A DNA stretch of 64,000 nucleotides from a virus (IMGVR_UViG_3300031851_000001); one strand, 5' to 3'. Positions 1 to 58,740 are shown, counted from the stretch's first letter. The notes: generated by a model from the sequence alone, not told the origin. Numbers and translations: made by a program.

Positions 1-327
1 AGCGAACGTAAAGAGTTTATGATTACTGAATGCCATTATAGTGAGGATTTGCGTAAGCACGATATTTTAATATCACCTGGGATTACAAACTTTTATGACC
101 AACACACATTAAACGTATTCTTAGCGTTTCCAATTAAAGACGAAGAATATACTGTTACACTTAAATATGGTACGCCTTTAATGTCAATATACCCAATGCA
201 CGAAATGGAACTTGATATTAAAATGCATGAGGTAGAATCAAAAGAGAAATGGCATAGAATACAACACGTATATCCATCAACCTTTATCGGACGTTATCAC
301 TCCCGGAAACACACACGCAGTAAGTGA
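1..327 (+). CDS. Hypothetical phage protein, C-terminal part (frame is open from base 1, so 5'-truncated by the window)
   Basis: The frame runs without a stop from position 1 to 327. The PGI..F..QH..NV....GTPL..I.P pattern resembles a common uncharacterised T4-like phage family. It is the only plausible real plus-strand gene and converges on the rSAM cluster. Confidence 0.55.
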   Translation, partial: SERKEFMITECHYSEDLRKHDILISPGITNFYDQHTLNVFLAFPIKDEEYTVTLKYGTPLMSIYPMHEMELDIKMHEVESKEKWHRIQHVYPSTFIGRYHSRKHTRSK

Positions 328-1305
328 ATGGTGTTCCATATAAGATAGGACACCTTTATCAATACATGTCATTAAATTTTTACAAGAAGCACAATTGTCA
401 GTTTCACTTGAATAAGTCAACTGTGACATAAACTTATTTTCTTTTACTTGAGTCCATGACTCAATATCGTTTTCATCTTTGACCACAAAATTATCTGTAC
501 CAATTAAAGCAATATCATATACGAATGGTGTCCAAAAGAAACGTTCGTTACAATAAGTATAATTTAATTCTAAAGAACCACCTTGTGCTTGGTCAATAAA
601 TGTTTTAGGCATAAGGTCGTCGGCAAAGTCATAGTTTTTCCATTTCTCAATAAGATGCTTTTGCACTTTAGATTTAGGTGCTCGGAAGAATGATGGATTT
701 AAAGTAAGTATAGAATCAAACCGTTCCTCAACAAGTTTTGACATCTCGAGTACTTTATTATTCTCAACATCATCATTACCCATATTATATACCATATAAT
801 AATTTAAATCATCTGTCAACTCATTTAATATTCCTAATTTATATTCAAGTACATTCCAATTAACTGGCGGCTGCAGGGCTATGTTACAATCATACATAAA
901 TCCCTCGGCCTTTGGAATACTATTCAGCATTTCAATAATATTAAAATCAATCTTTTCTAATGTTGTAACGAATTGAATAGTAGTTACTTTACTTAAACAC
1001 TCTCGGAATGTTTCGTCTTTCAACAACTCGGTGATATTATTATTACCAAATAAATCAGTTGGACCAATATTAATGGTTGACACGCGATAGCCATTGGTAT
1101 TAAATAAATCAATGGCGTTGTTTAATCTATCAAATGATCCCATATTTGATCCGAGTTTATTGACAAAACAACCTTTACATTTAAACTCGCAGCCAGATAA
1201 TACTTCGCAATTAAATTGTACTTTGATTTCATGTCCTTCACTAAAGGATAAATCAAAATCTTTATCAGCTTGTGCAGCACGCTTATTGTTAGTAACTATT
1301 CCCAT
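277..1305 (-). CDS. Radical SAM protein (cluster paralog 5) with C-terminal Cys4 auxiliary-cluster motif
   Basis: CEFKCKGC = CX3CX2C near the N-terminus; IGPTDLF motif; C-terminal CASCKNLMTC-X16-C. Start moved from 1332 to the ATG at 1305 because GAGGT lies 5 nt upstream, inside the 3' end of the previous gene. Confidence 0.88.
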   Translation of the reverse strand: MGIVTNNKRAAQADKDFDLSFSEGHEIKVQFNCEVLSGCEFKCKGCFVNKLGSNMGSFDRLNNAIDLFNTNGYRVSTINIGPTDLFGNNNITELLKDETFRECLSKVTTIQFVTTLEKIDFNIIEMLNSIPKAEGFMYDCNIALQPPVNWNVLEYKLGILNELTDDLNYYMVYNMGNDDVENNKVLEMSKLVEERFDSILTLNPSFFRAPKSKVQKHLIEKWKNYDFADDLMPKTFIDQAQGGSLELNYTYCNERFFWTPFVYDIALIGTDNFVVKDENDIESWTQVKENKFMSQLTYSSETDNCASCKNLMTCIDKGVLSYMEHHSLTACVFPGVITSDKG

Positions 1306-2443
1306 GGTATACCTCATCATCATATAAACCAATTACATCTTTATTTAAGATGCATTCTTTTCTTCCATCAAACACAGTATCCATAATCATTGGAACCATT
1401 CTATTCGCACATATATTTAAATACTTACAACTGCCACACTCTTTTTCAGAACTTTTTTCAATTTGGCTATTGACAATCTCGTTCTTTTTGTTTAATATAT
1501 AATCAACAATATCGGCATCAGGTAACCAAAGCCAACTATTATCAACTTTAAAATCATCTGTATGGATTTGAGCATTCTCATATATGAATGGCGACAAATA
1601 CATATCTCCGTGGTATATACTAACTACAGAATAATGAAACGCTTTATGTGATACGTCACCTTGTAAGAAATGGAATTTGTTTTTAAACTTATGTGGATCT
1701 GCAGCCAATCGAGTTAACATATCATTCCATTCAAATAGTTTGTCTCCGTGCTTTGCGCTATGATTAAAAGAACGTACTACTGACGGTAATACTTCGATTA
1801 CTGTTTCATACCTAGCTCTAACAAATTCAATAGCAGGAAATAATATATCTTCTACACCTTGCACGATATTAGTAGCCATACTTATTTCAAAGTTTAAAGA
1901 ACTATTTTTAAATGTTTCAACTCTTTCATCAAGTGCATCTAGGTATACCTGATCATTCATTAATCTATTTAAATCCAAAGCAATTTGTACATCCCATGCT
2001 TCGACTACTTCGCCTAGCATTGAGTTTTCAATAGCTTTTATTTTACCTTCAATATCTTTTTCAGATAATGATCCGAGTATAGAACAGTTATGTTGGATAT
2101 TTCTATTATCTTCAGGCATCATGGATATGGCATCAGCAAGCCTTTGATTATTAATAATCTCTTCTAAATTTTGAGCACCATAAAAGTCGGTTGGGCCAAT
2201 CACAATGTCGTCTAATACAATATCAGTTCTATCTTTTAATTCAAATGCCAAGGAATGAAATGTTGCGATTGAGTTTGGGTTCCAATTACCTTTACGTTTA
2301 ACAAAACAACCCGGACACATATATGAACAACCTTCGAGTATTTCAAGGTTGACCTGTATTTTATATTCTTTCATATTGTCGATTGAAGTAAATTCCTCAC
2401 CTCGCCCACCGTCTACAATATTTTTCCAATCATTATTTAACAT
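1289..2443 (-). CDS. Radical SAM protein (cluster paralog 4)
   Basis: CSYMCPGC (CX3CX2C); IGPTDFY; YLSPFIYE; C-terminal CGSCKYLNIC-X18-C. Confidence 0.9.
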   Translation of the reverse strand: MLNNDWKNIVDGGRGEEFTSIDNMKEYKIQVNLEILEGCSYMCPGCFVKRKGNWNPNSIATFHSLAFELKDRTDIVLDDIVIGPTDFYGAQNLEEIINNQRLADAISMMPEDNRNIQHNCSILGSLSEKDIEGKIKAIENSMLGEVVEAWDVQIALDLNRLMNDQVYLDALDERVETFKNSSLNFEISMATNIVQGVEDILFPAIEFVRARYETVIEVLPSVVRSFNHSAKHGDKLFEWNDMLTRLAADPHKFKNKFHFLQGDVSHKAFHYSVVSIYHGDMYLSPFIYENAQIHTDDFKVDNSWLWLPDADIVDYILNKKNEIVNSQIEKSSEKECGSCKYLNICANRMVPMIMDTVFDGRKECILNKDVIGLYDDEVYHGNSY

Positions 2444-3590
2444 ATGATATATCCTTTAATCGTTTTAGTTCTGGATCGTCATCATCAGTAACTAAAAACT
2501 TTTTACGATAACCGTTCTTATCGTTTTCAACAGAATAACCATCCCATCCATACATTGTCTGAGCAGGACCATTATAATTGTTTATATTATTTAGCATATT
2601 CTCTTTTGGTGCTATGCAGCGGTCTACTCCAAGGTAATCCCTTAACATTATTATTTTTCTGTTATAACAACTAAAGAATAATGGGCAATCCTCGCATTCA
2701 GTACCTTTTGCTCTTTTAATTTGATGTTCAACCATTGGAACAACATCATCAAAAGATTTGACTTTAAACATATCATCATATATCGCCATGTTCTCATACA
2801 TAAATGGACTTAAATACCATTCACCGCGTTTGTAGTTTAATACAGTGTAATTAATACCTGCGTGAGAATGGTCTACCATAATATTGTTTAGCTTGGACTC
2901 TTGGTGCCATGTGCTAAAGTATTCGTTAAACTCATCAAGCGTTTTTAAGATTATGTTTGCTTTATGCGAACGAGATACTGACGGAATAAAATCTAATATA
3001 GTATCAAAACGTTTTACAGCCTGATCATGCAATGCCTCATAATCTAATCCATAATCTTTAATGTTAACAACAAACGTATAAGTAACCTCATGTTGAATGT
3101 GTGTATCTATATAGGCTAACATATCTGATATATGTTTTGTGTATTCGTCAGTAAAAAACTTATGTGGATTTGTAGCGATACCAATTTCTATTTCAGTATC
3201 TAAATTAATATTATCAATAAGGAAATCGCAAAACTTTTTAATATCACCATCAATAAGAGTAGAGACAAAAGCTAGGATAGGTGAGTTTTCATTAATGATA
3301 TCTACGAGTTCTGGCATTACTTGATAGAAATTTTCTGATGCTAAAAAGTCTGTAGGACCAATTAATATTTCATCAACAAGTATCCCTTGGTCAGTAATAG
3401 AACGTATGAACTCTTTTGCCATATATACTTGGCTTTTATCACTAGAGTTACCCCGTCGATGTACAAAGCATCCAGGGCACTTGTGGTGACAACCGTCTAG
3501 TACATCCATTTGAATTTTAACAGCGCTGACGGGCTTAGTTTGGGTCTCTGTCGTCATCTCATAATAGAGATTATTTTTAATCAGAGGCAT
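2433..3590 (-). CDS. Radical SAM protein (cluster paralog 3)
   Basis: CHHKCPGC; IGPTDFL; YLSPFMYE; C-terminal CEDCPLFFSC-X16-C, plus a ~55-aa C-terminal extension. Confidence 0.9.
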   Translation of the reverse strand: MPLIKNNLYYEMTTETQTKPVSAVKIQMDVLDGCHHKCPGCFVHRRGNSSDKSQVYMAKEFIRSITDQGILVDEILIGPTDFLASENFYQVMPELVDIINENSPILAFVSTLIDGDIKKFCDFLIDNINLDTEIEIGIATNPHKFFTDEYTKHISDMLAYIDTHIQHEVTYTFVVNIKDYGLDYEALHDQAVKRFDTILDFIPSVSRSHKANIILKTLDEFNEYFSTWHQESKLNNIMVDHSHAGINYTVLNYKRGEWYLSPFMYENMAIYDDMFKVKSFDDVVPMVEHQIKRAKGTECEDCPLFFSCYNRKIIMLRDYLGVDRCIAPKENMLNNINNYNGPAQTMYGWDGYSVENDKNGYRKKFLVTDDDDPELKRLKDISYVK

Positions 3591-4599
3591 ACATATATTC
3601 CTTTAATGCGACGCAGCTATCTAATCCTCGCGACTCCATATATAAATGTATATTACGTTCAGCACAACTCATCATATACTCGCAGCCATTACAATCATCA
3701 ACCTGTTGAGCATAATCTATATTTTCATATAAAGTATTCGCATCCATTGTTGTTTCAAAATTTGGAGTTCTTTGAATAATAACATCATACAAGAATGGAT
3801 TTAAATATAGTTTATTATTATAGAAGCTATAATTTTGGCAGCCATATCCATTAAACTTTGCATCAAAAAATGTATAAAGGTTAAGCCATTTCTTATCAAT
3901 ATCTTGCTCAATCATTTCACGTCTAAAGTTTGCAAGGTGTTGTTCTACTTTACCACGCGCGTTCCTATCTGTTAAAAACGACGGTGTAATTATAACTGGT
4001 GCATTATAGTCATCATATATCCGTTGACATAAGTCGTTATATGTGATACGCTTAAATACATCTTTATGATAATTAACTCTAAATTGAACTGAACCTAACT
4101 CAAACATTTTAAGTTTACGGTTCCAATCGTCTAGTTCTCCATCAAGGTACTTGTCTATATCTAAAACGATTTTAAAATCAATATCAGGTACTCTATGAAC
4201 ACCTTCATATAAACTCCATATCATATCAAGTTTAGTTCTTATCTCGGCATATGATTGAAGTAATGTTGATGTAAATCCAACTGCTGATATTTCGTAAAGC
4301 TTTTTCATATATGGATGTTTCATAATTTCATGGAAGTTCTCTGCATCAAAAATGTCAGTAGGTCCAATCGTTATCTCGTCAGGATAATATGCGCCGTCCA
4401 TTAATAAATTGTATAATGTTTCTAAGTATTCAGGTTTAGTAAGGTTTTTACGTGGAATAAAACATCCTGGGCACGACTGAGCGCAGCCATGTAATATGTC
4501 TAGGTTTATTTCAGTACGTAAGAAGTCTGTATTAATAGGGCTCTTATCTTTATCATACGTATAATAACCTGCATATGTTTTATTCAGTTTTACTATCAT
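3577..4599 (-). CDS. Radical SAM protein (cluster paralog 2)
   Basis: CAQSCPGC; IGPTDIF; YLNPFLYD; C-terminal CNGCEYMMSC-X16-C. Confidence 0.9.
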   Translation of the reverse strand: MIVKLNKTYAGYYTYDKDKSPINTDFLRTEINLDILHGCAQSCPGCFIPRKNLTKPEYLETLYNLLMDGAYYPDEITIGPTDIFDAENFHEIMKHPYMKKLYEISAVGFTSTLLQSYAEIRTKLDMIWSLYEGVHRVPDIDFKIVLDIDKYLDGELDDWNRKLKMFELGSVQFRVNYHKDVFKRITYNDLCQRIYDDYNAPVIITPSFLTDRNARGKVEQHLANFRREMIEQDIDKKWLNLYTFFDAKFNGYGCQNYSFYNNKLYLNPFLYDVIIQRTPNFETTMDANTLYENIDYAQQVDDCNGCEYMMSCAERNIHLYMESRGLDSCVALKEYMYASD

Positions 4600-5416
4600 C
4601 GGCTACACTAGCGGCATTGGCTTTAGCCTCTGCTTCGATTTCAGCTTGTAAATCTTCATCAGACTTTGGTTTTGGAATTTCAACGCTGTTAATAAACCCA
4701 GGAGGCATCATTGATAAAATGTTACTAGTAATATTACTTTGTGTCAATAAGAAAAACAAATCTTTACCAAAGTATGCAGGTTTATCATTATACATCTGTT
4801 TATTATATTCTTGTTTAAATCCAAGCATAGAACAAACTAATAGGAAACCATCCCAGCCATCTATAAGAAGGCGTGCAACGTTTGGACCACAATTTGCTGG
4901 CTTGTCAGTTACTTCAATTTGCTCAACAGCTTCTTTTACATCAACTTCAATTGCTTTGTTTTCATCTGATAAGTTTTCGTAAAATTTGCAGAGTGTGAAT
5001 GGAATAAGTTCAGCCATTGCATTACAAACATCTTCTATAAGTTCATAGTTTTTGTCTACGAAGTCGTGCAATTGTTCTTTACTAAAGAGGCCAAGTAATT
5101 GTTCTTCTAAGCCATTAAACTCATACATGTATCTTACTTTGATTGCCATTACAACAAACCGTGATAGCAGTGGTGCTTCTACGATAAAGTCTGATTTAAT
5201 ATATTCTATTAATAGTTCTTCGTCAACCTGCGCAAAGGTTGTTTTAAAATTAGTATTGGCCAAATAGATTAGAATATGTTTGGCTGATAACTTTTCTTTT
5301 GATGCTAAATAATCTACCCATAAAACAAAGTTTTCGTTGTCTTCTTTTAATTTATATATTTCAACTAAATTTTGCGGTGCTAATGGCAGCGTATATAAAG
5401 TTTGCTCTTCACTCAT
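4580..5416 (-). CDS. Hypothetical protein embedded in the rSAM cluster (278 aa, acidic, probably helical)
   Basis: Long ORF, co-directional with and overlapping the downstream rSAM gene by 20 nt. No motif recognised. Confidence 0.75.
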   Translation of the reverse strand: MSEEQTLYTLPLAPQNLVEIYKLKEDNENFVLWVDYLASKEKLSAKHILIYLANTNFKTTFAQVDEELLIEYIKSDFIVEAPLLSRFVVMAIKVRYMYEFNGLEEQLLGLFSKEQLHDFVDKNYELIEDVCNAMAELIPFTLCKFYENLSDENKAIEVDVKEAVEQIEVTDKPANCGPNVARLLIDGWDGFLLVCSMLGFKQEYNKQMYNDKPAYFGKDLFFLLTQSNITSNILSMMPPGFINSVEIPKPKSDEDLQAEIEAEAKANAASVADDSKTE

Positions 5417-5431
5417 AATAAAATCACTTTC

Positions 5432-6535
5432 TTATATCAATGGGTATTTATGAATTAAATATGGAATTCTGTTTTGACGTTTTGAAAAGAACTGAACATC
5501 TGTGTTAATTAATGCCAAGTCTTCTCTAATATTATCTGTGTTAAAGTTTCTTTCTAAAACTTTTTTAACAATAGGGAACACGTTATTGATTTCAGTATAT
5601 AAATCCATGTATTCCCAACCGTCAGCAGTCGTATCAGCTTTATTTTGATGAACGGCTATAAAGGCAGCGTCGTCTTTAACTTTATTCCACATTTCTTCTA
5701 ATTTATAAAACGCTAATGTATAGTTAGATTTATTAGCAGCATTTACATATACGTCTTTAAAGAATTGTTGTTTATCTGTAGCCCAGCCATTTTCTTCAGT
5801 TGCATTAGCATTCATATAATCAATAACTGACATAATATATGCCGAGTAGTGACGACGTGAAGTAAAGTGTTCCATAACATCTTTTGCCATAACTGGTGAA
5901 TGAATAGTAAATTTTTCAACAATCAATTCTGAAACGCCTGCACATGAATAGAAATCGTTTAAGAAGAATAGCAAGTCATAACTAAAGTTTTTACCATTCT
6001 GATATGTAATTACCCAAGGTGTTTCGCCTTCAGCATTTAATAAAGTATTTGTATGGTTTCTAACATCGTTATAAACTGTCGAGTTGCTCATTAAAGATAA
6101 TACTAAATCTTGGTTAATAACTGCTTCCATATAATGAGCAACCATCGCATTAATTGTTGTTGCATCTGCGTCAGGATAAAAACCACATGATGTTAACAAA
6201 CCAGCAGTATATTTTGCAAATACTTTAATCATATCCTCTTCGTCTGTAAACATAAGAATACGCTTATCACTATTTTGAATATAAGTAGGATTGGCAATAG
6301 TATCCCATTCTTCAAAATCTAATAGTTCTGATGAGCCTGATCGTGCACCTTCTGCCAGCGCTTCATACTCAGCAGGCTGAAGAAATGAGTCTACAAGGTC
6401 AGGCTGTACAATAGTAATTCGTCTTGGTTCAGCAGTGTGGTAAAAAGAATTTAATTCACCAATTACTGTTTCAACGTTTTGTGTATTCGTAATATACTTT
6501 TTATTATTTAAGTAATATAAACTCTGCCCAATCAT
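5432..6535 (-). CDS. Hypothetical protein embedded in the rSAM cluster (367 aa)
   Basis: Long ORF coupled to the upstream rSAM gene by an ATGA start/stop overlap at 6532-6535. No motif recognised. Confidence 0.75.
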   Translation of the reverse strand: MIGQSLYYLNNKKYITNTQNVETVIGELNSFYHTAEPRRITIVQPDLVDSFLQPAEYEALAEGARSGSSELLDFEEWDTIANPTYIQNSDKRILMFTDEEDMIKVFAKYTAGLLTSCGFYPDADATTINAMVAHYMEAVINQDLVLSLMSNSTVYNDVRNHTNTLLNAEGETPWVITYQNGKNFSYDLLFFLNDFYSCAGVSELIVEKFTIHSPVMAKDVMEHFTSRRHYSAYIMSVIDYMNANATEENGWATDKQQFFKDVYVNAANKSNYTLAFYKLEEMWNKVKDDAAFIAVHQNKADTTADGWEYMDLYTEINNVFPIVKKVLERNFNTDNIREDLALINTDVQFFSKRQNRIPYLIHKYPLI

Positions 6536-7707
6536 GATCTTACTCCTAATTTTTCTATTGCGTCATCGTTCCAAGTAAAATCATACGGGTTATATTCTGC
6601 AAGGACATCTTTGTTCAATACACAACCGTTGACGTTTAATGATTCTTGGGCTTCAAAGATTAATCTGCTTGCACAGGCAACTGCAAATTTACAGTCAGCA
6701 CAATCTTTTACTTTACTAGACCTATTTATACCTTTTGTCACTAGTTCATTTTTACGATCTAATATTTGCTCGAATGTTAAACCAGTAACATCTAAATTTT
6801 TATTACCTAAGAAAAACGCTTGCTCATGCAGCATTACATTTAGGTGTGTAGTTGGACCATTTTCTCCTGGGACAATAGTAAGTCCAACAAAGTTAATTGA
6901 GTTACAATAAAGATTAGCCATTGACATAACGGTTTCTTGCGCATTATCTTTATCAATAACTCTACCAAGGAAATCGTTCCAACCAAATAAATTCTTTCTT
7001 TGTATCAATTGTGAATTGGCTCTAGAGAAAGCAGGGTTCATTTCTACAATTGTTTCATATTCGTTTACAGATTTTTGAATAATTTTATTATAAGTTTCTT
7101 TATCAATTTTTCTACCAACAACGTTAGAAGCCTGTAATGTCCACGACCAATCCATTTGTTTTGGTGTATTATTTTTAAAGAACTCTACCTTTTCCATAAC
7201 GTTATTAAAATATTCGTCATCGTTTAACATCTGATCTACTCTACCGATTGGCATAATAAATTCGATAATCATTTCGCGACGATACTTATCCTCATCATCA
7301 AGTACGGCAAAGATTTCTTTTACTTTATCCATAGTAGCCAAATCAAATTTAGCAGGTGCCGCGATACGAGCGCCAGTATGTTCTCTCATAATTTCTTGGA
7401 CTACTGAATTATTTAATACTGACTCTGTATTTTTAGCAGTGAAAAAGTCTGTTGGTCCAATAACGAACTCTCTTAAGTTAAGTCCAGTTCTTTTTACACC
7501 ATCTGCTAATTCTTTTGCTCTATCAATAATTTGTTGGTTCATAGCAGGGTCTATGTTTTTATCAACGAAACAACCTAAGCAGCCGTGATTACATCCTGCT
7601 AAAACTTCCATTTGAATTAGAACATCAAACTTAGTAGCATCTGACGGTGTTAGGCTTTCTGGACCAGAGTACCGCATTTGCTTACAATATGATTTTTGCA
7701 TTGACAT
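6532..7707 (-). CDS. Radical SAM protein (cluster paralog 1)
   Basis: CNHGCLGC; IGPTDFF; C-terminal CADCKFAVAC-X16-C. Start moved from 7800 to the ATG at 7707 (MSMQKS), 1 nt after the stop of the upstream small gene. The longer track ORF overlaps that gene. Confidence 0.9.
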   Translation of the reverse strand: MSMQKSYCKQMRYSGPESLTPSDATKFDVLIQMEVLAGCNHGCLGCFVDKNIDPAMNQQIIDRAKELADGVKRTGLNLREFVIGPTDFFTAKNTESVLNNSVVQEIMREHTGARIAAPAKFDLATMDKVKEIFAVLDDEDKYRREMIIEFIMPIGRVDQMLNDDEYFNNVMEKVEFFKNNTPKQMDWSWTLQASNVVGRKIDKETYNKIIQKSVNEYETIVEMNPAFSRANSQLIQRKNLFGWNDFLGRVIDKDNAQETVMSMANLYCNSINFVGLTIVPGENGPTTHLNVMLHEQAFFLGNKNLDVTGLTFEQILDRKNELVTKGINRSSKVKDCADCKFAVACASRLIFEAQESLNVNGCVLNKDVLAEYNPYDFTWNDDAIEKLGVRS

Positions 7708-7708
7708 C

Positions 7709-8092
7709 TTATCTTCTTCCTCTCGAACTGTGGCAACTAGTATGACAACTTGCGTGACAATAGTATGCGTTAATAGTTCTGTTTGACATTCTTCCTTCAA
7801 TTAGATCAACTGTTCTTCTAGTTATATCTTCCAATGTATCAACAATATCCTGTCCGTAAATAATATTACCACTATTGATACCACCATCTACATAGTTATC
7901 ATATACATAGTAGTTTGCATTAACATATTCAAATCTATGGTAATGCCACTGTCCTCTAGTATAACTGGTAGCAGCACTACTAGCTCTTACATATGCGTTA
8001 ACATAAATTCCAACCGTTCTATCGAACGTTCTTAATTGTTGACCACTATATGTTCTTACCCACGACCTAACGTCATTTCTATCCATAGTCAT
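7709..8092 (-). CDS. Putative rSAM substrate/precursor B, 127 aa, ending YYCHASCHTSCHSSRGRR
   Basis: Paralog of 8092..8472. C-terminal (C-H-x-S)x3 repeat. TAATG coupling with the upstream paralog. Sits immediately upstream of the first rSAM gene. Confidence 0.8.
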   Translation of the reverse strand: MTMDRNDVRSWVRTYSGQQLRTFDRTVGIYVNAYVRASSAATSYTRGQWHYHRFEYVNANYYVYDNYVDGGINSGNIIYGQDIVDTLEDITRRTVDLIEGRMSNRTINAYYCHASCHTSCHSSRGRR

Positions 8093-8472
8093 TAGCGGCG
8101 CCCTCTCGAACTATGACACGAAGAATGGCAACTTGCGTGGCAATAATATGCATTAATAGTTCTGTTAGATATTCTACCTTCGCATAAATCAACCGTTCTA
8201 CGAACAACGCTACGAATAGAATCAATAACATCACCAGAACGAATAATTCCGCCAGTGTATATACCGCTATCCAGATAATTGTTATATACATAGTAGTTTG
8301 CATTTACGTATTCAAACCGCGTATAATGCCATTGACCTCTGGTATAACTTGTTCCCCAGTTAGAACCTCTAACATAAGCGTTGATATAAAATCCTACGGT
8401 TCTATCAAATGTTCTTAATTGTCGACCACATTGGTTTCTTACATTTGTATTTAACTGTGCATACGTTGGCAT
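8092..8472 (-). CDS. Putative rSAM substrate/precursor A, 126 aa, ending YYCHASCHSSCHSSRGRR
   Basis: About 75% identical to precursor B over the last ~109 aa (hand count). Starts 1 nt after the stop of the long fibre gene. Confidence 0.8.
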   Translation of the reverse strand: MPTYAQLNTNVRNQCGRQLRTFDRTVGFYINAYVRGSNWGTSYTRGQWHYTRFEYVNANYYVYNNYLDSGIYTGGIIRSGDVIDSIRSVVRRTVDLCEGRISNRTINAYYCHASCHSSCHSSRGRR

Positions 8473-8473
8473 A

Positions 8474-11400
8474 CTATACTTTAACCTCTACTTCACCATT
8501 TTCACTATCAGATATCGCAATACCAATAATATCAAAGCTATTTATACCAGCAGTACCATAGTCTACGGCACGGCCTTTACCATCACGATCAGCAATAATC
8601 CATTGACCTTTAGTTGCATCGCCATTAATAAGAACTGGAATACGTCCTTTAAGAGCAACGAATGGGTTCATCTTAGACTCAATAGAGTCATCGTTGTCAT
8701 ATTCAATATGCTCATTCATTCTGTATGCAGGATTTGTAGAAACCGCACCAGCAACTGGCATTCCGGGTTGATACAATGTTACTTCTTTATCGCCGCCGAT
8801 ACCTAGGATATACCCAGGACCATAAATCGCGTCTGCTTCATATCTCTCTGCAAGGTCAGCCCATCTTGCTGACGTAGCCGTACCAACAAACACACCATCG
8901 TTTGCGATATAAGATCTATCAGAACCATTTTGTCTAAACTGACAAATTCTGTTTGAGTTTCCGCCTGCAACGATATAGAAACGGTTTGAGTGATATTCAA
9001 TTTTACCAACGTCGTTTCCTGGGTTACCTGTCCAGCTTTCGTTACCTGATTCTTCAAATCTAATACATGGTGAATAACCATCTTGGTGGCGAGTTCTTAA
9101 CTGCCATTGTCCTGCAGCATTTAAATCACCGGACCATGTTCTGTCACCATACATCCAACGACACATTGTACCGTTATATGTCGCTCTAAGTTGGAAAGAC
9201 ATAGATGAAGAGTTATTGTTACCAGTAGCAGCCCAATACTGACCTTGATAAGAATAAAAGTGTCCACCTGTACCTTGGTTATATAATCCATTGCGTGCTG
9301 AATCATTTCGGAGCCAACTCCTAGCATAAATATCGTTGCCTCTCATACCTGTATTAAAGTTAGAAAACGATGCTGGATCACAATAATAACCGGTGTTGTT
9401 TGAGTCATAGAAGATAGGCGCACGGAAGCTAAATCCTGAGTAAGCATAGTTTGCATCACCATAAACTCTAAACAAGTCAGAGTTACCAATACCACCAGTT
9501 GCCTGACCGTGTCGGCCAATATAGAAGTCTGCGCCAGAAGTATTGTTGTTATTTGAGTCTAAGTTAATATACACAGAACCATATGAGTTGATACGAATAT
9601 CGTCAGAAGTGTTACCATTAAGATCTCTAGCAGAGATTGAGTGGTTTGTGCTGTTATCACCGTATAAGGTAATAAAGTCACCACGATCACGCATATCAAA
9701 CTGGTCAGCTCGTACAACATTCATTTGAGATGTAGATGCAGGGTCTGTATAACGACCCGTGTTATTATTGTCATAGAATATTTGAGCTCTTAATGAACTA
9801 CGTGCTTGTAATGAGTTATTTACATAAACATCATTAGCACCTAATGGATCAGTCGCATTGTTGATTGACATAACCTGATTATTCATGTTGTAGTCATCAT
9901 AGAAACGCATACCATTATAGTTTGCATTAGCACCAAACTTAATACCTGTATGGAAAGCAATTCTTAAATCAGGGTAACGATATGACCAACCACCGCCTTC
10001 ACGGTAAATAGCATAAGCAGCTGATTCATTAGATGAAAAGTATAAACCAAACGTATCGTCTTGTGATACATCATCTTTATGTATAAACCTATTTGCTCGA
10101 ACATCGCCAGCAAAACTGTTGTCACCGGCTGGATTTAAGAAGTATGAAGAGTTGTTACGATCGTAATAAACATCGGCATACATATTACCATATACTTCAG
10201 TTGTACCACCGCGAGTTCTTAATGCCCATCCTGCACTATTATTAAGGAAACCAATATCATTCGAGTTATTTGCATATACATAACCTCGAATAGTACCGGC
10301 GTTTTCATCTCTAAATCGTATACCATTAGCAGATGAACCACCAGCAATGTTCCAATAGTCATCATTATCTGAATAGAAATGCTGACCTGTTGCAGTGTTA
10401 TATAAACCTCTACCATTTGTATCGTTACGGAACCAACCATCGTTATATACTTCAGAACGAATATCAAGTGTGTGCATTACCGATGTACTAGCAAAGTCAC
10501 CATAATAACCTGTGCTATCTCTATCGTAATATCTGCCAGCGTAAGCTCCGCCTGTTACGAATACATTACCGTCACCACGAACGAGAAGATTTGTTGTTCC
10601 GGATAATCCGCCATCTTTAAATGCGATGTCTTCACCACCCGATGTAGCAATAATTAAATGATTATCGTTTGTATCAGTAGCTTGGATATAACCACGAACA
10701 TTACCAGCACCCGTAATAAATTGAGCTTCACCACCATCAGCAAACTGAATAACATCAACTTTTGATGTATTTGATGGATCCATATAGAAAGACGTATTAT
10801 CTGAGTCAACTAATCTACTTGCATAGAAGTATGAACTTGTACCACCACCTGGGTTAGCGTTATAGATAGCAATATCAGAATAAGAAGAATAGGCTGTACC
10901 TGAGTTCCATGACTGTTGCCATAGACGCATACCACGACCAGACTTTTTAAACATCAATAAGTTATCTGAACCACCAGAAGAGTCTGTGTAAGATCTTAAG
11001 TGTAAGTAATCGGCATATGGTGCAGTGTTATCGTTGTTCCAAGATGTGAAACCAAACGTTAGTCGACCCGCAGTATCTTCATTTGGTTCAATAATACGGT
11101 TATCTTTTCGTAACAATGTTTGAGCATAACCATCAACATTACCTTGGATTACGTTATCAACTTGTAGTGTTAATAGTCTTGAAGTACCGTTACCATCAAT
11201 TTTATATGCAGTGTTATCACTATCATACCAAATTGGTGAACGTAACTGATTAGTACCTAAGAAGAAACCATCTTTAGTAGAGGCTTGTTCTGTACCAGCC
11301 CAATGAAGTTCTGTATCACCTGCTTGGCGATAGATCGTAGCCCACTGATTGTTCGTATCGTTATAGATACCAGCAATACCAGCTCCACTTGACATGAATA

Positions 11401-14400
11401 CCCAGTCATCGTTAATAGCATAACCTGCGTAACCACCTTTATTACCAGTTACACTAATGGAACCATAATTACCAGTAGATGTATCTAATTGATAAGTTGA
11501 GCCACCAAATTGAACTGCGTTTGCACGAAGAACATTAGTAAGAGATGTTGAAGCAGGATCTAAATAATAAGCATTATCGTCTGAGTCATAGAACCGACTT
11601 GCATAAGAACCGTTTAGAGCAGTATGCGTACCTGTTACAACAACATTACGAGACATAGCCCAATCACCATTAGCATCAGTCCAGTTATCGTCAGTAACAA
11701 ATCTTAGTCTGTCTGGGTTAGTACCCTCTGCCATTCTAAGCATTTGAGTTCCACCAGCAACCAACTGCATATCGTCAGCGCCAATAAATCTGATATATGT
11801 ATTTGTATCACCATTATGTCTGATATATTCATCAGCACGTATTTCGTTAAATACAGATGTTGAAGCAGGGTCAGCATAATAAGCTGAGTTATTAGAGTCA
11901 TAAAACCTTTGAGCATATGAATAACGTCCAGCCCAAACATCACCGTCAGACTCAACACGTAAACGATATGTACCATTACCGGCGCCAGATGTAAATTGTA
12001 AATTACCACCAGAATTTGTTGCTAAGTCATTTGGTGACTCATAAATTTGCCATAGGTTTCCGCCGTTCCATGCTAGTCCTTCAGACGGTCCCGGATCGTT
12101 GAATGTTAATTTGTTTACGTTATTAATATTACCATTTGTCCAATCCCAGTTACCTGCGACTTTAGATGGACCTTTTGGTTCAATATAATAGTTAGTATCG
12201 TTAAGATCTCTAAACCTACCAGCATCAATAATATTTGCTGATATGTTGTCTGCAGAAACATCACCAGTAACAGTAAGATCCCCACCGATTGAAGCATCAG
12301 TAACGACAGTTAATCCTTCAGCTTTTATACTCGATTGTACATCAACTCTCTTTAGAATTGGTGGACCAAATTCACGAGTTGCACCGTTTGGCGCAAAGTT
12401 CATAAGAGAAACTAATCTAACAAACCGAACACCTGCACCATCTGAACCATTAAATGGCGTATGGGTAGTTGGAAGCGTATGCTCACCTTTATATTCAGTC
12501 CAGCCTGTGGCGGTGTGGTCAACCGCAGATGCCGCGAAGTATACAATACCATCGTTAGCAGCAATTGGATTTTTATCTTTATCGTATTGTCTAACACCTA
12601 AGTAAAATAAACCGCCAGTACCACTGATGCGTCGTACTGCCTGTTCTGCATAAATTGTTTCTCCCGGCTCAACTGGAATAAAGTCAGAGTCAAAATCTCT
12701 GTAACCGTTAGTTCTTAATACATAACTTGATGCGAATGGGCCATCACCATTTAAAACATAATCACTGGTAGATGTAGTTGCGCTATTTTCAATACCTTGC
12801 ATTGGTTGGATAACTCGTTTATCCCAATAATCTGATGCATCAAACATTTTCATATCAGCAAGGCCAGAGCCATACGTTTTTAACAATCCAAGATTTTCAT
12901 TACCACCATTAAGAGCAAGTGATCCAAATATACCAGCGCCATAAGCTTGTATGTCACCATTTTCTGAGAACCAGAAACGCTCACCTATATTATTAAACGA
13001 AATACCCATCGCAGAGCGAGAGTTTCTTGTTTGGTGGAATATAGATGGGAAGTTAGCATCAGCAGTAGTATTTTGTAAAACGATCAAACGTTGTTGTGCA
13101 GACTTAACTTCAAGTGGATATGTAGTATTATTAAAGATTGCGCTATCGCCTGCCTTAACAGATTTAAGTCTAGATTGACCAGACGGTTGCATATAAAATG
13201 CAGCGTTATTTAAATCATAGAATATTGGAGAACGCATACTGTTTGGAGCAGAACCATAACCGTTTTCAGCACCAATTTGGTGAATGTTATTTGAATGTAA
13301 TCTTGTAAAGTTATTTCTGTTTGCAGTCAGTGACCATTCATTATCAGTCTCGTTATACAGACCCATCTCTGTAGCACCGCTGGATATAAAGCCCCAGTCA
13401 TTACTAATCATATAACCTGCATAACCATCTCTTTCGCCTTCAACCATAATAGTCCCTTTAGGACCTGATGGTGAGTCGATAGTTAGAGAACTGCCATCCA
13501 TTTGGATTTGATTTGTTCTAACAACATTAAGTATAGATGTTGAAGCAGGATCTAAATAATAAGCATTGTTTCCTGAGTCATAATAACGTGGAGCGTAAAC
13601 ATCAAGGTTAAAGTCAGCAGAGTTATCATCAATGTTTAATCTCTGTGTATTATTGATAAACAATTTATAGATACCAGCGGCTGAGAAACCGAAGTATGTA
13701 TCTTCATCACCTTTATGTCTAATATAATCGTCTAAGTCAATTCTATTCATTACTGATGTACCAGCAAAGTCACCATAATAAGCGTTGTCATTATAATCGT
13801 AATAAGTAGGGAAATATGCCATGTCATTGGCATCGGCTGCTGATATGCCGCCGTTGAAATTCACTCTCTTATTGAATAGGAATATTGCTCTGTCTGTATC
13901 AAACTGAGCTGACCCTGCAACCTTAGATCCAATATCTAAAGTACCAGTTGGTGTTGTGAACCTATGAGCATTGGCTGTATTTGGCTCAAACTTGTAAGTT
14001 CCACCAGCATCAGAGAATATTGGAGAACGCATATCTGTTGCAGCTTCAGCATATGTTGAATATACATCAAGCTGTGCGGTTCCACCGGCAGTAAATATAA
14101 TTTGGTCAGCGCCAAAACCAATTTTAGTATTAGTATTTCCGTCGTGTATAATTTCACCGACAAGACTTATATTATTCATTCGTGATGTACTAGCAAAGTC
14201 ACCGTAGAATAAAACATCATCTGCATCTAGGTATTGAGCGAATGAAGCATTACCTGTTGATGTGAGTAATTTATTATTTCTAATTCTAAGATTGTTGGCA
14301 TCGTTCATATAGAAACCGCCACCTTGACCAAAGCCAAGTTCATCCATTCTTAGGAATGTAGCAGTTCCATTACCGACAACATATGCATCATCAGTACCAT

Positions 14401-16861
14401 TAAGTTGAAGCGATCCATCTATGTGAAGTTTACTATCTGTTTTTGTTCCGCTATTTAATATCGGTGTATTATCATGTTGAGTATATGCGACTGAGTCATT
14501 ACCGATTGTAATATCCCCTGTGCTAAGCATTGCTAATCTAGTTGATGCACCACTATCGTAGAAGTAAACTCCTTGGTCTGCATCAGATATAAAGTAAGCA
14601 TTCCTTGAGTTATCACCACGAATAGAGAACGCCGCTGCGCCATCTGATAAGAACTCTGCCCAATAAGCATTTTTACTTTGGTATGGATTACCACCAATGT
14701 CAATTCTATTAAGTGATAAGAGCGATAGCCCGCCATTATTACCAGCGATTGAAATTGTAGGGTTAGTAGTTGCACCTAATCCTGCGTATGGCGCGATCAT
14801 AATTCCGCCAGTGCCTGAGTTATTATCTACAAGATTAAAGTCTGTGCCTGCTCCAACATTAATACGACCACCAACTCTAAGTGAGTCAGAAGCACCAGTT
14901 TGACCAAGATCCAAATAATTTGTGGTTCCTGATGTATCATAATATACCGGTGCTTTCATATTGTCAACGGCAGTTACACCAGAATCTCTTACGAATAATC
15001 TATCAGAACCACCAGTTCTTACTTTAAATTCGTTTGCAGCAGAGAATGTAATAAGTGTATCAGCATCTCCTTGATGAATAATATCACCTTGTAAACTAAT
15101 ATTATTCATTACCGATGTACCAGCAAAGTCACCATAATATGAGTTATTATCAGAGTCGACAAATTGTGGTGCAAGAACATTATACGTGAATGTTGCATTT
15201 GAATTATTAAGAGTTAATCGTGCAGCGCCATTTGTTGTAAATGTTTGCGTATCTGCGCCAAAAGAAATCTTATTATTAGTATCACCATTATGGAATAAGT
15301 CATCGTTAATCCCAAGGTTATTAAATACCGATGTACCGGCAGGATCAGCATAAAAGTTATTGTCACTTGAGTCAAGGAACCTTGGTGCGATTAAGTCAAC
15401 TGATGATGTAACCGACGTATCAGTGATTGCTAATCTTGTTGCTCCACCTGTGTTTAAATTGATTGTGTCGGTATCAAATGATAACTTAGTATCGGTATCA
15501 CCATTATGGAAAAGATCGCTGTCAATTCCAATCGTATTCATTACAGATGTACCAGCAAAGTCACCAAGATATGCATTATTACCGCTATCTAAATAGCGAG
15601 GAGCCTTTACATCAACTAATGATGTTACGTCAGTGTCAGTAATTAATAACCTTTGACCTCCACCAGTATAAACTTCAAATTGGTTAGCAGCCGGGAAATT
15701 AATATATGTATCAGCATCGCCATCGTGCGAAATTGTCCCAACAAGACTGATGTTATTTAACCTAGATGTATCAGAAGGCCAAGATAGATATGTATTATCA
15801 GCAGAGTCTAAAAATTTATCAGCAATAAGATTACGACCAACAGTCCAATCTCCATTTAAATCTGAATATGTTTGATAAGCAAATACGCCATCAAGGAAAC
15901 CAATTTTACCATTGTCTGATGCCATAACTCTATTGTTACCCGCACCACGCATAGTAAGTAGTGCTGAGCCAGTTCCATCACCAATAGCAACTGTACCTTC
16001 AAACTCTAAGTTACCTGTAGCAACATCGTTAACATCTGAGCGAATAAACTGAGCAGCTTCTAATCCATCAACCGTGTCAGCATCAAATAAGTTACCTGCA
16101 CCTTCATCATCAGTTGTAATAATACGACCTAAGTCTGTACCTCCTGATATTAGTTTAAACCAATCATTTGTTTCATCCCATTGTAAAGATGAATTTGGTA
16201 AATTACCACGAAGAACTTCCCAACCAGCATTTTCTGTCGGAGCTCCTGTAGTAAAATTACTATTAAGAGTAATTAAGTTATCGGCAATTAAAACTGTTTC
16301 TGATTGAACTTCGGTACGTGTACCTTGTACTGTAAGGTTACCAGTGATAATATAATCACCGTCCAATGTATCATTTTGGTCAGAACGAACAAACGATAAT
16401 GAGTCAATTCCATCAAGAAAATCGGCATCTAAGCCTGATCCTGTACCATCGTTACCACTATACCAAACTGGTACGCCGTTAATGGAAGGAACATTAGTAA
16501 AATCCGCTTCAGTAGTATTAATTGTAAGCTGGACGTTATTACCGGCTTTGAATACCAAACCGCTTGCCGTATTATCATTAAATTTTATTTCGTTTGAGCC
16601 TGAGGTATTGTAAATACTGTAGTCACCACTACCTGTATTTTTAATTCGTAATGCACCTACGCCGCCTGCAAAATCCATTAAAGGAGTATCAATACCTCCT
16701 GTGTTCTCAACAGTAATTGGAACCGATGAGCCTGTGCTTGTAAGTTTGGCTGTGCCTGATACTTGTAATTTATTTACACCATCATCAGAGGATGTGCCGA
16801 CAAGAACGTTATTCTCCGATTGAAGACCGTTCTTTACTATGAATTTCTTATCATTTGCCAT
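8474..16861 (-). CDS. Very long tail fibre/receptor-binding protein (~2795 aa) with C-terminal peptidase G2-like autocleavage chaperone
   Basis: N-terminal KKFIVKNGL motif typical of marine T4-like fibre proteins; ~18 YDS.NNAYY.DPASTS repeats; C-terminal ARWADLAERYEAD...GRIPV pattern typical of G2-type intramolecular chaperones. The ATG at 16861 is spaced correctly from a GGAG Shine-Dalgarno site; the GTG at 16870 is too close. Confidence 0.85.
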   Translation of the reverse strand: MANDKKFIVKNGLQSENNVLVGTSSDDGVNKLQVSGTAKLTSTGSSVPITVENTGGIDTPLMDFAGGVGALRIKNTGSGDYSIYNTSGSNEIKFNDNTASGLVFKAGNNVQLTINTTEADFTNVPSINGVPVWYSGNDGTGSGLDADFLDGIDSLSFVRSDQNDTLDGDYIITGNLTVQGTRTEVQSETVLIADNLITLNSNFTTGAPTENAGWEVLRGNLPNSSLQWDETNDWFKLISGGTDLGRIITTDDEGAGNLFDADTVDGLEAAQFIRSDVNDVATGNLEFEGTVAIGDGTGSALLTMRGAGNNRVMASDNGKIGFLDGVFAYQTYSDLNGDWTVGRNLIADKFLDSADNTYLSWPSDTSRLNNISLVGTISHDGDADTYINFPAANQFEVYTGGGQRLLITDTDVTSLVDVKAPRYLDSGNNAYLGDFAGTSVMNTIGIDSDLFHNGDTDTKLSFDTDTINLNTGGATRLAITDTSVTSSVDLIAPRFLDSSDNNFYADPAGTSVFNNLGINDDLFHNGDTNNKISFGADTQTFTTNGAARLTLNNSNATFTYNVLAPQFVDSDNNSYYGDFAGTSVMNNISLQGDIIHQGDADTLITFSAANEFKVRTGGSDRLFVRDSGVTAVDNMKAPVYYDTSGTTNYLDLGQTGASDSLRVGGRINVGAGTDFNLVDNNSGTGGIMIAPYAGLGATTNPTISIAGNNGGLSLLSLNRIDIGGNPYQSKNAYWAEFLSDGAAAFSIRGDNSRNAYFISDADQGVYFYDSGASTRLAMLSTGDITIGNDSVAYTQHDNTPILNSGTKTDSKLHIDGSLQLNGTDDAYVVGNGTATFLRMDELGFGQGGGFYMNDANNLRIRNNKLLTSTGNASFAQYLDADDVLFYGDFASTSRMNNISLVGEIIHDGNTNTKIGFGADQIIFTAGGTAQLDVYSTYAEAATDMRSPIFSDAGGTYKFEPNTANAHRFTTPTGTLDIGSKVAGSAQFDTDRAIFLFNKRVNFNGGISAADANDMAYFPTYYDYNDNAYYGDFAGTSVMNRIDLDDYIRHKGDEDTYFGFSAAGIYKLFINNTQRLNIDDNSADFNLDVYAPRYYDSGNNAYYLDPASTSILNVVRTNQIQMDGSSLTIDSPSGPKGTIMVEGERDGYAGYMISNDWGFISSGATEMGLYNETDNEWSLTANRNNFTRLHSNNIHQIGAENGYGSAPNSMRSPIFYDLNNAAFYMQPSGQSRLKSVKAGDSAIFNNTTYPLEVKSAQQRLIVLQNTTADANFPSIFHQTRNSRSAMGISFNNIGERFWFSENGDIQAYGAGIFGSLALNGGNENLGLLKTYGSGLADMKMFDASDYWDKRVIQPMQGIENSATTSTSDYVLNGDGPFASSYVLRTNGYRDFDSDFIPVEPGETIYAEQAVRRISGTGGLFYLGVRQYDKDKNPIAANDGIVYFAASAVDHTATGWTEYKGEHTLPTTHTPFNGSDGAGVRFVRLVSLMNFAPNGATREFGPPILKRVDVQSSIKAEGLTVVTDASIGGDLTVTGDVSADNISANIIDAGRFRDLNDTNYYIEPKGPSKVAGNWDWTNGNINNVNKLTFNDPGPSEGLAWNGGNLWQIYESPNDLATNSGGNLQFTSGAGNGTYRLRVESDGDVWAGRYSYAQRFYDSNNSAYYADPASTSVFNEIRADEYIRHNGDTNTYIRFIGADDMQLVAGGTQMLRMAEGTNPDRLRFVTDDNWTDANGDWAMSRNVVVTGTHTALNGSYASRFYDSDDNAYYLDPASTSLTNVLRANAVQFGGSTYQLDTSTGNYGSISVTGNKGGYAGYAINDDWVFMSSGAGIAGIYNDTNNQWATIYRQAGDTELHWAGTEQASTKDGFFLGTNQLRSPIWYDSDNTAYKIDGNGTSRLLTLQVDNVIQGNVDGYAQTLLRKDNRIIEPNEDTAGRLTFGFTSWNNDNTAPYADYLHLRSYTDSSGGSDNLLMFKKSGRGMRLWQQSWNSGTAYSSYSDIAIYNANPGGGTSSYFYASRLVDSDNTSFYMDPSNTSKVDVIQFADGGEAQFITGAGNVRGYIQATDTNDNHLIIATSGGEDIAFKDGGLSGTTNLLVRGDGNVFVTGGAYAGRYYDRDSTGYYGDFASTSVMHTLDIRSEVYNDGWFRNDTNGRGLYNTATGQHFYSDNDDYWNIAGGSSANGIRFRDENAGTIRGYVYANNSNDIGFLNNSAGWALRTRGGTTEVYGNMYADVYYDRNNSSYFLNPAGDNSFAGDVRANRFIHKDDVSQDDTFGLYFSSNESAAYAIYREGGGWSYRYPDLRIAFHTGIKFGANANYNGMRFYDDYNMNNQVMSINNATDPLGANDVYVNNSLQARSSLRAQIFYDNNNTGRYTDPASTSQMNVVRADQFDMRDRGDFITLYGDNSTNHSISARDLNGNTSDDIRINSYGSVYINLDSNNNNTSGADFYIGRHGQATGGIGNSDLFRVYGDANYAYSGFSFRAPIFYDSNNTGYYCDPASFSNFNTGMRGNDIYARSWLRNDSARNGLYNQGTGGHFYSYQGQYWAATGNNNSSSMSFQLRATYNGTMCRWMYGDRTWSGDLNAAGQWQLRTRHQDGYSPCIRFEESGNESWTGNPGNDVGKIEYHSNRFYIVAGGNSNRICQFRQNGSDRSYIANDGVFVGTATSARWADLAERYEADAIYGPGYILGIGGDKEVTLYQPGMPVAGAVSTNPAYRMNEHIEYDNDDSIESKMNPFVALKGRIPVLINGDATKGQWIIADRDGKGRAVDYGTAGINSFDIIGIAISDSENGEVEVKV
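9360..15820 (-). repeat. Dispersed protein repeat (F/Y)xD(S)xNxxYYxD(P/F)A(S/G)TS, ~18-19 copies; several extend to a ~72-aa unit with H.GD.DT...F
   Basis: Read from the translation, e.g. RYLDSGNNAYLGDFAGTSVMN, RYYDSGNNAYYLDPASTSILN, RFYDSDDNAYYLDPASTSLTN, IFYDSNNTGYYCDPASFS. Confidence 0.9.
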
Positions 16862-16898
16862 TCGGTTCACTCTCCCCAGTTAGGCTTATTCTTTATTG

Positions 16899-16906
16899 TA
16901 TTTATA
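16899..16906 (-). promoter_or_regulatory. T4-type late promoter TATAAATA
   Basis: Exact TATTTATA on the + strand, in the short gap upstream of the long fibre gene. Confidence 0.8.
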
Positions 16907-23318: not shown

Positions 23319-23326
23319 TATTTATA
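23319..23326 (-). promoter_or_regulatory. T4-type late promoter TATAAATA
   Basis: Exact intergenic match upstream of the 108-aa gene. Confidence 0.8.
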
Positions 23327-40597: not shown

Positions 40598-40605
40598 TAT
40601 TTATA
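40598..40605 (-). promoter_or_regulatory. T4-type late promoter TATAAATA
   Basis: Exact intergenic match upstream of the 4017-aa gene. Confidence 0.8.
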
Positions 40606-50642: not shown

Positions 50643-50650
50643 TATTTATA
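50643..50650 (-). promoter_or_regulatory. T4-type late promoter TATAAATA
   Basis: Exact intergenic match upstream of gp8. Confidence 0.8.
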
Positions 50651-58732: not shown

Positions 58733-58740
58733 TATTTATA
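58733..58740 (-). promoter_or_regulatory. T4-type late promoter TATAAATA
   Basis: Exact intergenic match upstream of gp25. Confidence 0.8.

Follow-up and report, generated by a model that had tools for sequence, protein, structure and literature searches.

Radical S-adenosylmethionine (SAM) enzymes with a SPASM domain are known to mature protein substrates such as HxsA, QhpC and sulfatases. A precedent for a substrate with His-x-Ser repeats is the bacterial, defensive HXS system, in which HxsA is matured by two radical-SAM enzymes, HxsB and HxsC, together with HxsD, gains 8 Da on the sequence SHRSS and binds DNA (PMC13128918). The sulfatase maturase anSME (TIGR03942, PDB 4K36-39) acts on a Cys in a protein, and the SPASM maturases of the PapB/freyrasin, SCIFF/CteB and QhpD/QhpC systems turn evenly spaced Cys into thioethers with a residue three to four positions away, QhpC being kept whole. 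The present analysis concerns IMGVR_UViG_3300031851_000001, a 64,000-nucleotide stretch of DNA (the window) covering the late structural region of an uncultured marine T4-like myovirus. Within it, two tandem genes, A and B (Table 1), encode small proteins ending in the 16-residue unit (Cys-His-x-Ser)x3-Arg-Gly-Arg-Arg, termed here the tail, next to a cassette of radical-SAM-like enzymes. On balance, A and B are probably two folded proteins associated with the virion or the fibre, with an invariant tail that the cassette takes as substrate and that remains part of the protein.

The first-pass annotation of the window likened the tail to SCIFF, HxsA and the triceptides, a comparison that stands for the pattern of residues and falls for family membership, as no hidden Markov model of those families matched. 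The likeness to HXS lies in a substrate that is a protein, in tandem His-x-Ser in a basic context and in more than one radical-SAM enzyme, and the modified S-H-R-S-S of HxsA resembles C-H-x-S-[C/R] here; HxsA differs by its signal or processing region, peptidoglycan-binding domain and five repeats, with no obligatory Cys and no RGRR end (PMC13128918). Three H-x-S units occur in every tail member, and four at two loci from metagenome-assembled genomes (MAGs), a pattern rather than homology to HXS. HxsA (TIGR03979) and HxsD had no match among the tail proteins or the small cassette proteins, and cassette enzymes scored 31.6-35.4 bits against HxsB (cut-off 370) and 16.6-30.9 against HxsC (cut-off 268). 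With anSME the cassette shares CX3CX2C at the very N-terminus of an enzyme, the absence of an RRE domain and a full SPASM region, and the last repeat, C-H-x-S-R, may be compared with the anSME target. Here, however, there are many more enzymes, the score against TIGR03942 is 27-40 bits (cut-off 349), and the target motif C/S-x-P/A-x-R is not reproduced, with Arg at +4 only in the third repeat and S, T or G, never P and rarely A, at +2 there. The thioether systems use Asp, Glu or Thr as acceptors rather than Ser or His, employ one enzyme instead of the four to nine found here, and are neither phage-encoded nor virion-linked. Scores reach 50 bits for PapB (cut-off 340) and 30.5 for the SCIFF maturase (cut-off 425); an NCBIfam scan of tail protein B (P0001) at E 0.1 returned no SCIFF or ranthipeptide precursor, and its 127 residues with a folded body differ from a leader-core of about 45. 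The CXXX-repeat system (TIGR04115) likewise combines Cys at every fourth residue with a SPASM enzyme, but the score is 26-31 bits (cut-off 350) and its product is uncharacterised, so that this comparison says little. By analogy, the cassette would work like radical-SAM/SPASM maturation of protein substrates, yet it lies outside every one of those families.

The invariance of the tail is the first line of evidence. A word-indexed search returned 97 relatives, all metagenomic, of which the 91 with at least 110 amino acids form the full-length set. CHxxCHxxCHxxRxRR stands at the end of 88 of these, and the other three are two singletons with one His replaced and one chimera; apart from them, no full-length homolog lacks the tail. 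An exhaustive profile search of 1.84 billion cluster representatives gave 108 hits, and among the 105 new representatives read (50%-identity clusters, 112-541 aa) about 95 carry (C-H-x-[S/N/A])x3-R-[G/S]-R-R at the very C-terminus, with hypervariable, barely alignable N-terminal bodies. Since the tail is kept at the end of proteins whose bodies can scarcely be aligned, the 16-residue tail rather than the whole protein is the conserved unit. Across 63 unique family genes, every invariant position of the tail is written in mixed synonymous codons (TGT and TGC at 37:26, both CAT and CAC, Ser as AGY and TCN, Arg as AGR and CGN), and in tandem pairs the tail has a pS of 0.73, which amounts to synonymous saturation. 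The tail is thus invariant under saturated synonymous change, and because the synonymous sites are saturated with the peptide unchanged, selection acts on the tail peptide; purifying selection, first proposed from the single pair in the window, is borne out by the family as a whole. Two MAG loci binned as Bacteriovoracia (L058:864-1433 and L062:156-764) have four CHxS repeats instead of three. A 1283-aa match, P0126, was set aside as a chance match to a repeat protein, read as pentatricopeptide-like from its repeat sequence.

Turning to the pair itself, the annotation had described two tandem paralogs with differing N-termini and about 75% identity over about 109 residues, and the open reading frames (ORFs), BLASTP (85/116 identical, E 9e-42) and a direct count (82/109 or 75.2% over the last 109 aa) all agree with this. 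Divergence is found in the first ~18 residues, whereas the C-terminal ends, YYCHASCHSSCHSSRGRR and YYCHASCHTSCHSSRGRR, share 24 of the last 25 residues and 15 of the last 16. As was also noted at the outset, the DNA of those 25 codons is far less alike: about 11 codons differ, including CGC CGC against AGA AGA and Ser TCG against AGT, for a single amino-acid change (Ser/Thr). The genes are closely packed, with the fibre stop TAG, one base and then the ATG of gene A; the overlap TAATG joining the stop of A to the start of B; and one base between the stop of B and the ATG of the first radical-SAM-like gene. Genes A and B are translationally coupled. On the maximum-likelihood tree, a single origin fits the first copies of all tandem loci, and a single origin likewise fits the second copies. 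Each of the two copy labels requires one change, a result that holds for 74% and 66% of the bootstrap trees, respectively, against about 20 changes for shuffled labels. This single origin of each copy type implies that the duplication predates the phage clade and that both copies were retained. The retention of so ancient a pair would fit two proteins that form a heteromer or are used at distinct sites; in more distant phages the tail protein is present as a single copy. At the L006/L007 and L015 tandem pairs, unlike other loci, the tail DNA of both copies is nearly or fully identical (pS 0-0.12), which suggests recent local gene conversion between the paralogs.

The second line of evidence is the company that the tail gene keeps. 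It is present in all 44 IMG/VR loci, and in each of the 19 read in detail CX3CX2C enzymes lie beside it. The same holds for 16 of 18 MAG contigs found by a back-translated tail pattern, the ORF caller having given no tail-bearing gene in the other two (L066 and L068). Wherever a tail-bearing gene was called with flanking DNA, none was independent of radical-SAM genes, and this exclusive co-occurrence spans marine T4-like phages, phiKZ-related phages and jumbo phages of 490 kb. Clustering of the 19 loci yielded a core that accompanies the tail protein throughout: a 278-aa protein (18/19 loci), three canonical GGE-type radical-SAM/SPASM families (CNLNCxHC, CNFKCTFC and CNFRCDFC), a CHLNCSFC-type enzyme, a cupin/JmjC protein and a protein of ~135 aa. 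JmjC_2/cupin and 2-oxoglutarate (2OG)-Fe(II) oxygenases also travel with the cassette. The GPTD-type enzymes and the 367-aa protein occur in 13 and 12 of the 19 loci, respectively, the nearer ones only. Because the GPTD-type set is limited to nearer loci while the tail is universal, the enzymes reading the invariant tail are most likely the canonical ones, which on the evidence of relatives would sit just past position 1 of the window, in a convergent operon. Nine of the 18 cellular-genome contigs (L055, L056, L058-L062, L064 and L066), some of 300-380 kb, were binned with Bdellovibrionota MAGs and are either mis-binned jumbo phages or true bacterial loci.

The canonical CNLNCxHC family comprises 907 clusters at E<=1e-10 and is highly conserved, with KTTETCNLNCxHC, HGGEP and eight Cys in the SPASM region as invariants. 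In relatives, canonical enzymes score 25-26.6 bits against TIGR04085 (cut-off 27). All NCBIfam matches of the CNLNCxHC enzyme are peptide or protein maturases, with PapB at the top (2.5e-13) followed by YhhB, anSME, FxsB, DarE/DynA, HxsB and CXXX-repeat, each far under its cut-off. The closest solved structures by sequence are anSME 4k36 over the full length (E 3.7e-07) and CteB, and, as in anSME, an N-terminal RRE domain is absent. By these comparisons the canonical enzyme is of the peptide-maturase type.

The five enzymes inside the window are more remote. Four of them are 18-24% identical to enzyme 1, and their CX3CX2C motifs, invariant in the alignment, read CNHGCLGC, CAQSCPGC, CHHKCPGC, CSYMCPGC and CEFKCKGC. 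The best score against Pfam PF04055 is 18.2 bits, below the gathering cut-off of 29.5, with no match for the others, and a profile of the five matched no chain in the PDB. Four invariant C-terminal Cys (Cx2Cx5C...C) are twitch-like, at 13.9 bits against TIGR04085 (cut-off 27). These enzymes form a very divergent GPTD-type branch of the radical-SAM proteins (phrog_31457). The 278-aa partner is predicted by AlphaFold2 as an alpha/beta plus helical fold (pLDDT 88, pTM 0.81). A fold search gave no significant match to a known fold, the sole match being an unnamed relative in AFDB (E 8.7e-7) with VIA Z scores of at most 4.8, and an ESM Atlas feature search stayed at noise level (0.82). An anSME- or ChlB-like identity for this protein was considered from weak rows at Z 3.8-3.9 and rejected; hhalign against the GPTD-type enzymes gave a probability of only 0.2%.

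Direct searches of cultured-phage records with P0001 and two distant tail proteins (tblastn) and with the locus (megablast) gave no match, the tail itself being masked by the BLAST low-complexity filter. Cultured phages were reached instead through the 278-aa partner: Ralstonia RSL2 and RSF1, Burkholderia FLC6, FLC8 and S13, RsoM3USA, Pseudomonas pPa_SNUABM_DT01, Agrobacterium Atu_ph07 and Sinorhizobium Phosso. RSL2 ORF068 (186 aa) ends in CHSSCHTSCHGSRGRR and Atu_ph07 gp170 (296 aa) in CHSSCHASCHNSRSRR, and in both phages the gene order is cupin, a CNLNCKHC- or CQLNCAHC-type radical-SAM enzyme and tail protein. Purified Atu_ph07 virions contain gp170, identified by eight unique peptides at 35% coverage (Table S5, PMC6102473), and its mass recomputed from sequence, 31.89 kDa, agrees exactly with the table. 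The presence of this homolog in virions supports the earlier proposal of a folded protein kept whole rather than a cleaved peptide. On the gel, gp170 was found in bands 1-9 and was most abundant in band 1, whereas the peak for other 30-34 kDa proteins lies in bands 7-8; gp165, gp168, gp169, gp171 and gp172 are not in the virion table, and no cassette enzyme was detected (PMC6102473). The loading buffer was without reductant, so the high band represents a covalent or otherwise sodium dodecyl sulfate (SDS)-stable form of high mass in which a disulfide and an enzymatic link are not separable.

The part of the protein ahead of the tail was originally described as Tyr/Arg-rich and folded in appearance, unlike a short leader. 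Tyr and Arg do make up 22-23% of the body, and an AlphaFold2 model of tail protein B built from a 90-sequence alignment (pLDDT 84, pTM 0.66) contains helices at 5-20 and 80-101 and strands at 24-35 and 44-55 that form a hairpin (24-55). The N-terminal ~105 residues are thus predicted with confidence as a folded alpha/beta domain rather than a short leader, and the tail is modelled at low confidence (pLDDT 52-65). Searches of the PDB, BFVD and AFDB clusters gave no fold match below E 0.07, and the few matches at about 20% identity resemble unnamed members of the tail family.

A further association concerns the giant fibre protein directly upstream of the pair. Its last ~144 residues resemble the Peptidase_G2 domain, the auto-chaperone (intramolecular chaperone) of the phi29 gp12 pre-neck appendage, which is normally cleaved away once the trimer has assembled. 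Genes upstream of the tail protein encode 258-3242 aa and have only the last ~140 residues in common. This end domain occurs in 47 of 68 loci, including Atu_ph07 gp176 (L049:4617-6437), itself a virion protein (PMC6102473). Against PF11962, 13 of 25 members of the fibre-end family match at E<=0.01 (best 2.7e-06), with the window's own copy below significance, and the family profile matches the phi29 pre-neck appendage 3gqh at E 0.001. T4-like lineages show this link strongly, but there are exceptions: in RSL2 and several MAG contigs the domain is absent near the cassette. The likeness to phi29 gp12 and other Peptidase_G2 fibres is confined to the end domain of the fibre and serves as context; no tail protein or radical-SAM cassette is known to accompany phi29 gp12. 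One fibre with the end domain, of only 258 aa (L037:9215-9988), also has collagen repeats.

Genome papers on marine myophages and jumbo phages list multi-radical-SAM cassettes in host-recognition regions, unexplained (PMC7029224, PMC5332604, PMC8066314, PMC11898562). Those on cultured phages name only "radical SAM", "cupin" and "2OG oxygenase" there, and pelagimyophage and marine-virome papers note such cassettes without assigning a function. No description of the tail motif, or of how it is tied to the cassette, was found in the literature. New points are the anciently duplicated tandem form, the codon-level evidence for selection, the split between universal canonical and lineage-specific GPTD-type enzymes, the universal 278-aa partner, the auto-chaperone identity of the co-travelling fibre end and the gel anomaly of gp170. 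An invariant tail protein as the probable substrate makes the unexplained cassettes a testable question, with Atu_ph07 and RSL2 at hand as cultured systems.

In the proposed mechanism, A and B would belong to the tail-fibre module as small folded proteins, expressed late and paralogous since ancient times, and their tail would be both recognition and modification site for dedicated phage radical-SAM/SPASM maturases, assisted by the cupin/JmjC and 2OG-Fe(II) oxygenases. The enzymes would act inside the infected cell, and the whole modified protein, not a released peptide, would be built into or onto the virion with the fibre encoded upstream, an association with the fibre that seems likely in this phage. 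The tail would thereby be covalently modified. Its extreme conservation may reflect a short segment that must fit several enzymes at once, and perhaps a fixed final structure. As for the chemistry, the first choice would be Cys-centred, either thioether cross-links or Cys/Ser oxidation as in PapB, QhpD and anSME, a preference owed to the spacing of the Cys and to the affinities with PapB, anSME and CteB. The second choice would centre on His/Ser, with a change resembling the +8 Da that HxsA gains on SHRSS; it is kept in play because His and Ser are obligatory and HxsA provides the precedent. The JmjC_2 oxygenase of the cassette could also hydroxylate His or Arg, as the ROX family does. If the substrate reading is true, phage assembly would include a new step, in which radical enzymes modify a virion protein, and the minimal 16-residue tag and its enzymes could serve protein engineering. 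A more tentative proposal, doubtful as it stands, is that the cassette cross-links the tail, within itself or onto the fibre tip exposed when the auto-chaperone is cut off, and that the product is an adhesin module, hyper-stable or reactive, with the variable body reading the host. If true, this cross-linking would be a new class of virion maturation common to marine T4-like, phiKZ-related and 490-kb jumbo phages.

Several points weigh against the tail being a cassette substrate. The five GPTD-type enzymes of the window are absent from distant loci and so may act elsewhere, while the canonical enzymes are outside the window and were read in relatives only. For the native L015 pair of CNLNCSHC enzyme and tail protein, predicted as a complex that included 4Fe-4S and SAM, the score was 0.06 where the mark is 0.32, which speaks neither for nor against binding. 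Atu_ph07 gp170 is a distant homolog that shares the tail and the architecture with a body of 296 aa, and three-Cys disulfides could account for its high band (PMC6102473). An alternative is an unmodified metal site for Zn, Fe or Cu, perhaps along the fibre axis like the His motifs in the tips of T4 gp37/gp12, with the radical-SAM enzymes acting on another target, for instance the fibre itself or a decoration made of sugar or lipid. In the T4 fibre tips, His residues bind metal, and the three adjacent Cys-His pairs, the position of the genes in a fibre module and the fibre C-terminal domain that co-travels with the pair would all suit such a site; nor does the high gp170 band, whether SDS-stable or disulfide-linked, need enzymatic modification. 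For metal binding, however, there would seldom be a need to keep Ser at +3 invariant, to end precisely in RGRR-COOH and to hold the repeats at exactly three (rarely four) across unalignable bodies. The tail, moreover, is never found without the enzymes, and in cultured phages and distant loci the gene directly adjoining that of the tail protein encodes a SPASM maturase, which leaves the metal site unlikely. The pair could also be a classical ribosomally made and post-translationally modified peptide (RiPP) system, with the ~110-aa body as a long leader of the NHLP or Nif11 kind and the 16-residue core released as a toxin, signal or cofactor. A C-terminal Cys-rich core beside SPASM maturases is what such a system would show, RGRR could be a processing signal, and cofactors derived from peptides, such as pyrroloquinoline quinone (PQQ) and mycofactocin, typically stem from an invariant core at the C-terminus. 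Yet the cassette has no recognisable protease or exporter, a folded hypervariable body with a fixed core reverses the arrangement of most RiPP families, the genes sit in a late structural operon, and the Atu_ph07 homolog was found in virions as a protein covered to 35%; a released peptide is therefore improbable.

Two other explanations receive very little weight. In one, the pair would correspond on the phage side to the HXS defence effector: once matured, the basic HxS protein would bind DNA and block entry of a competing phage genome (superinfection exclusion), or would counter host HXS. The three H-x-S units with the basic RGRR end recall HxsA, which undergoes just such maturation by two radical-SAM enzymes, with +8 Da on SHRSS, and binds DNA (PMC13128918), and cassette enzymes match HxsB and HxsC weakly. 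Those matches, at about 17-35 bits for cut-offs of 268-370, are no better than those to a dozen other families, however. HxsA and HxsD are unmatched, and neither a signal peptide nor a peptidoglycan-binding domain was seen in the sequences. The structural location and the virion homolog in Atu_ph07 also speak for a different role, and an HXS counterpart is thus very improbable. The other makes the tail protein an accessory of the pathway rather than its substrate, as an Fe-S carrier or electron donor for the radical-SAM enzymes. The Cys/His-rich end could ligate a cluster, but no ferredoxin-type motif is known that combines CxxxCxxxC spacing, obligatory His and Ser, and a basic end, and the body is hypervariable. 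Phages of this kind do carry Fe-S assembly genes (PMC5332604), yet the homolog is packaged in virions and the enzymes are not, so that an accessory role is just as hard to credit.

Table 1. Coordinates of the tandem pair, the enzyme cassette and neighbouring features in the window
Feature	Position	Strand	Remarks
Tail protein A, P0002	8092..8472	-	126 aa; first of the tandem pair; ATG 1 nt past the fibre stop
Tail protein B, P0001	7709..8092	-	127 aa; second of the tandem pair; start overlaps the stop of A
16 codons of the invariant tail of A	8095..8142	-	CHASCHSSCHSSRGRR
16 codons of the invariant tail of B	7712..7759	-	CHASCHTSCHSSRGRR
Radical-SAM-like enzyme 1	6532..7707	-	391 aa from the ATG at 7707; CNHGCLGC, IGPTD, C-terminal Cx2Cx5C...C
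367-aa protein	5432..6535	-	confined to loci that also have GPTD-type enzymes
278-aa protein	4580..5416	-	beside the tail protein in 18/19 clustered loci and in cultured phages
GPTD-type radical-SAM-like paralog	3577-4599	-	one of four further paralogs
GPTD-type radical-SAM-like paralog	2433-3590	-	one of four further paralogs
GPTD-type radical-SAM-like paralog	1289-2443	-	one of four further paralogs
GPTD-type radical-SAM-like paralog	277-1305	-	one of four further paralogs
3' end of the last gene of the convergent operon	1..327	+	operon in relatives carries canonical GGE-type radical-SAM/SPASM enzymes
Giant fibre protein	8474..16870	-	2798 aa; directly upstream of the pair; tail-fibre PHROG matches on the C-terminal part
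Last ~144 aa of the fibre	8477..8908	-	Peptidase_G2 / phi29 gp12-like auto-chaperone domain
Collagen-repeat fibre	23387-28087	-	1566 aa; nine collagen-repeat stretches and C-terminal Peptidase_S74 intramolecular chaperone; second auto-chaperoned fibre kind in the module
ORF of 4017 aa	28509-40562	-	same late block
ORF of 1786 aa	43607-48967	-	same late block
TATAAATA, copy nearest the pair	8539..8546	-	inside the fibre 3' end, 66 nt upstream of the ATG of A
TATAAATA	6723-6730	-	
TATAAATA	16899-16906	-	
TATAAATA	19411-19418	-	
TATAAATA	23319-23326	-	
TATAAATA	28901-28908	-	
TATAAATA	40598-40605	-	
TATAAATA	50643-50650	-	
TATAAATA	58733-58740	-	

The window also holds baseplate wedge proteins and an L-shaped-fibre assembly-like protein, and its several giant fibre proteins range from 1294 to 4017 aa. 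Nine motifs of the T4-type late-promoter consensus occur in the window, all on the coding strand, five of them in short gaps just upstream of structural genes. The total is not above chance, about ten being expected; the pair may have its own late promoter, and at this chance-level count the nearest motif is only a lead. Contigs from RNA libraries of three studies cover both genes with 0-1 mismatches, although strand and level are not readable from them and DNA carry-over is possible, so that they are not proof of expression. The gp6-like wedge protein is at most 40% identical to that of any cultured phage, with Sinorhizobium phiM12/phiN3 and Caulobacter Cr30 as the best matches, and near-identical DNA is found in marine plankton metagenomes from a dozen studies.

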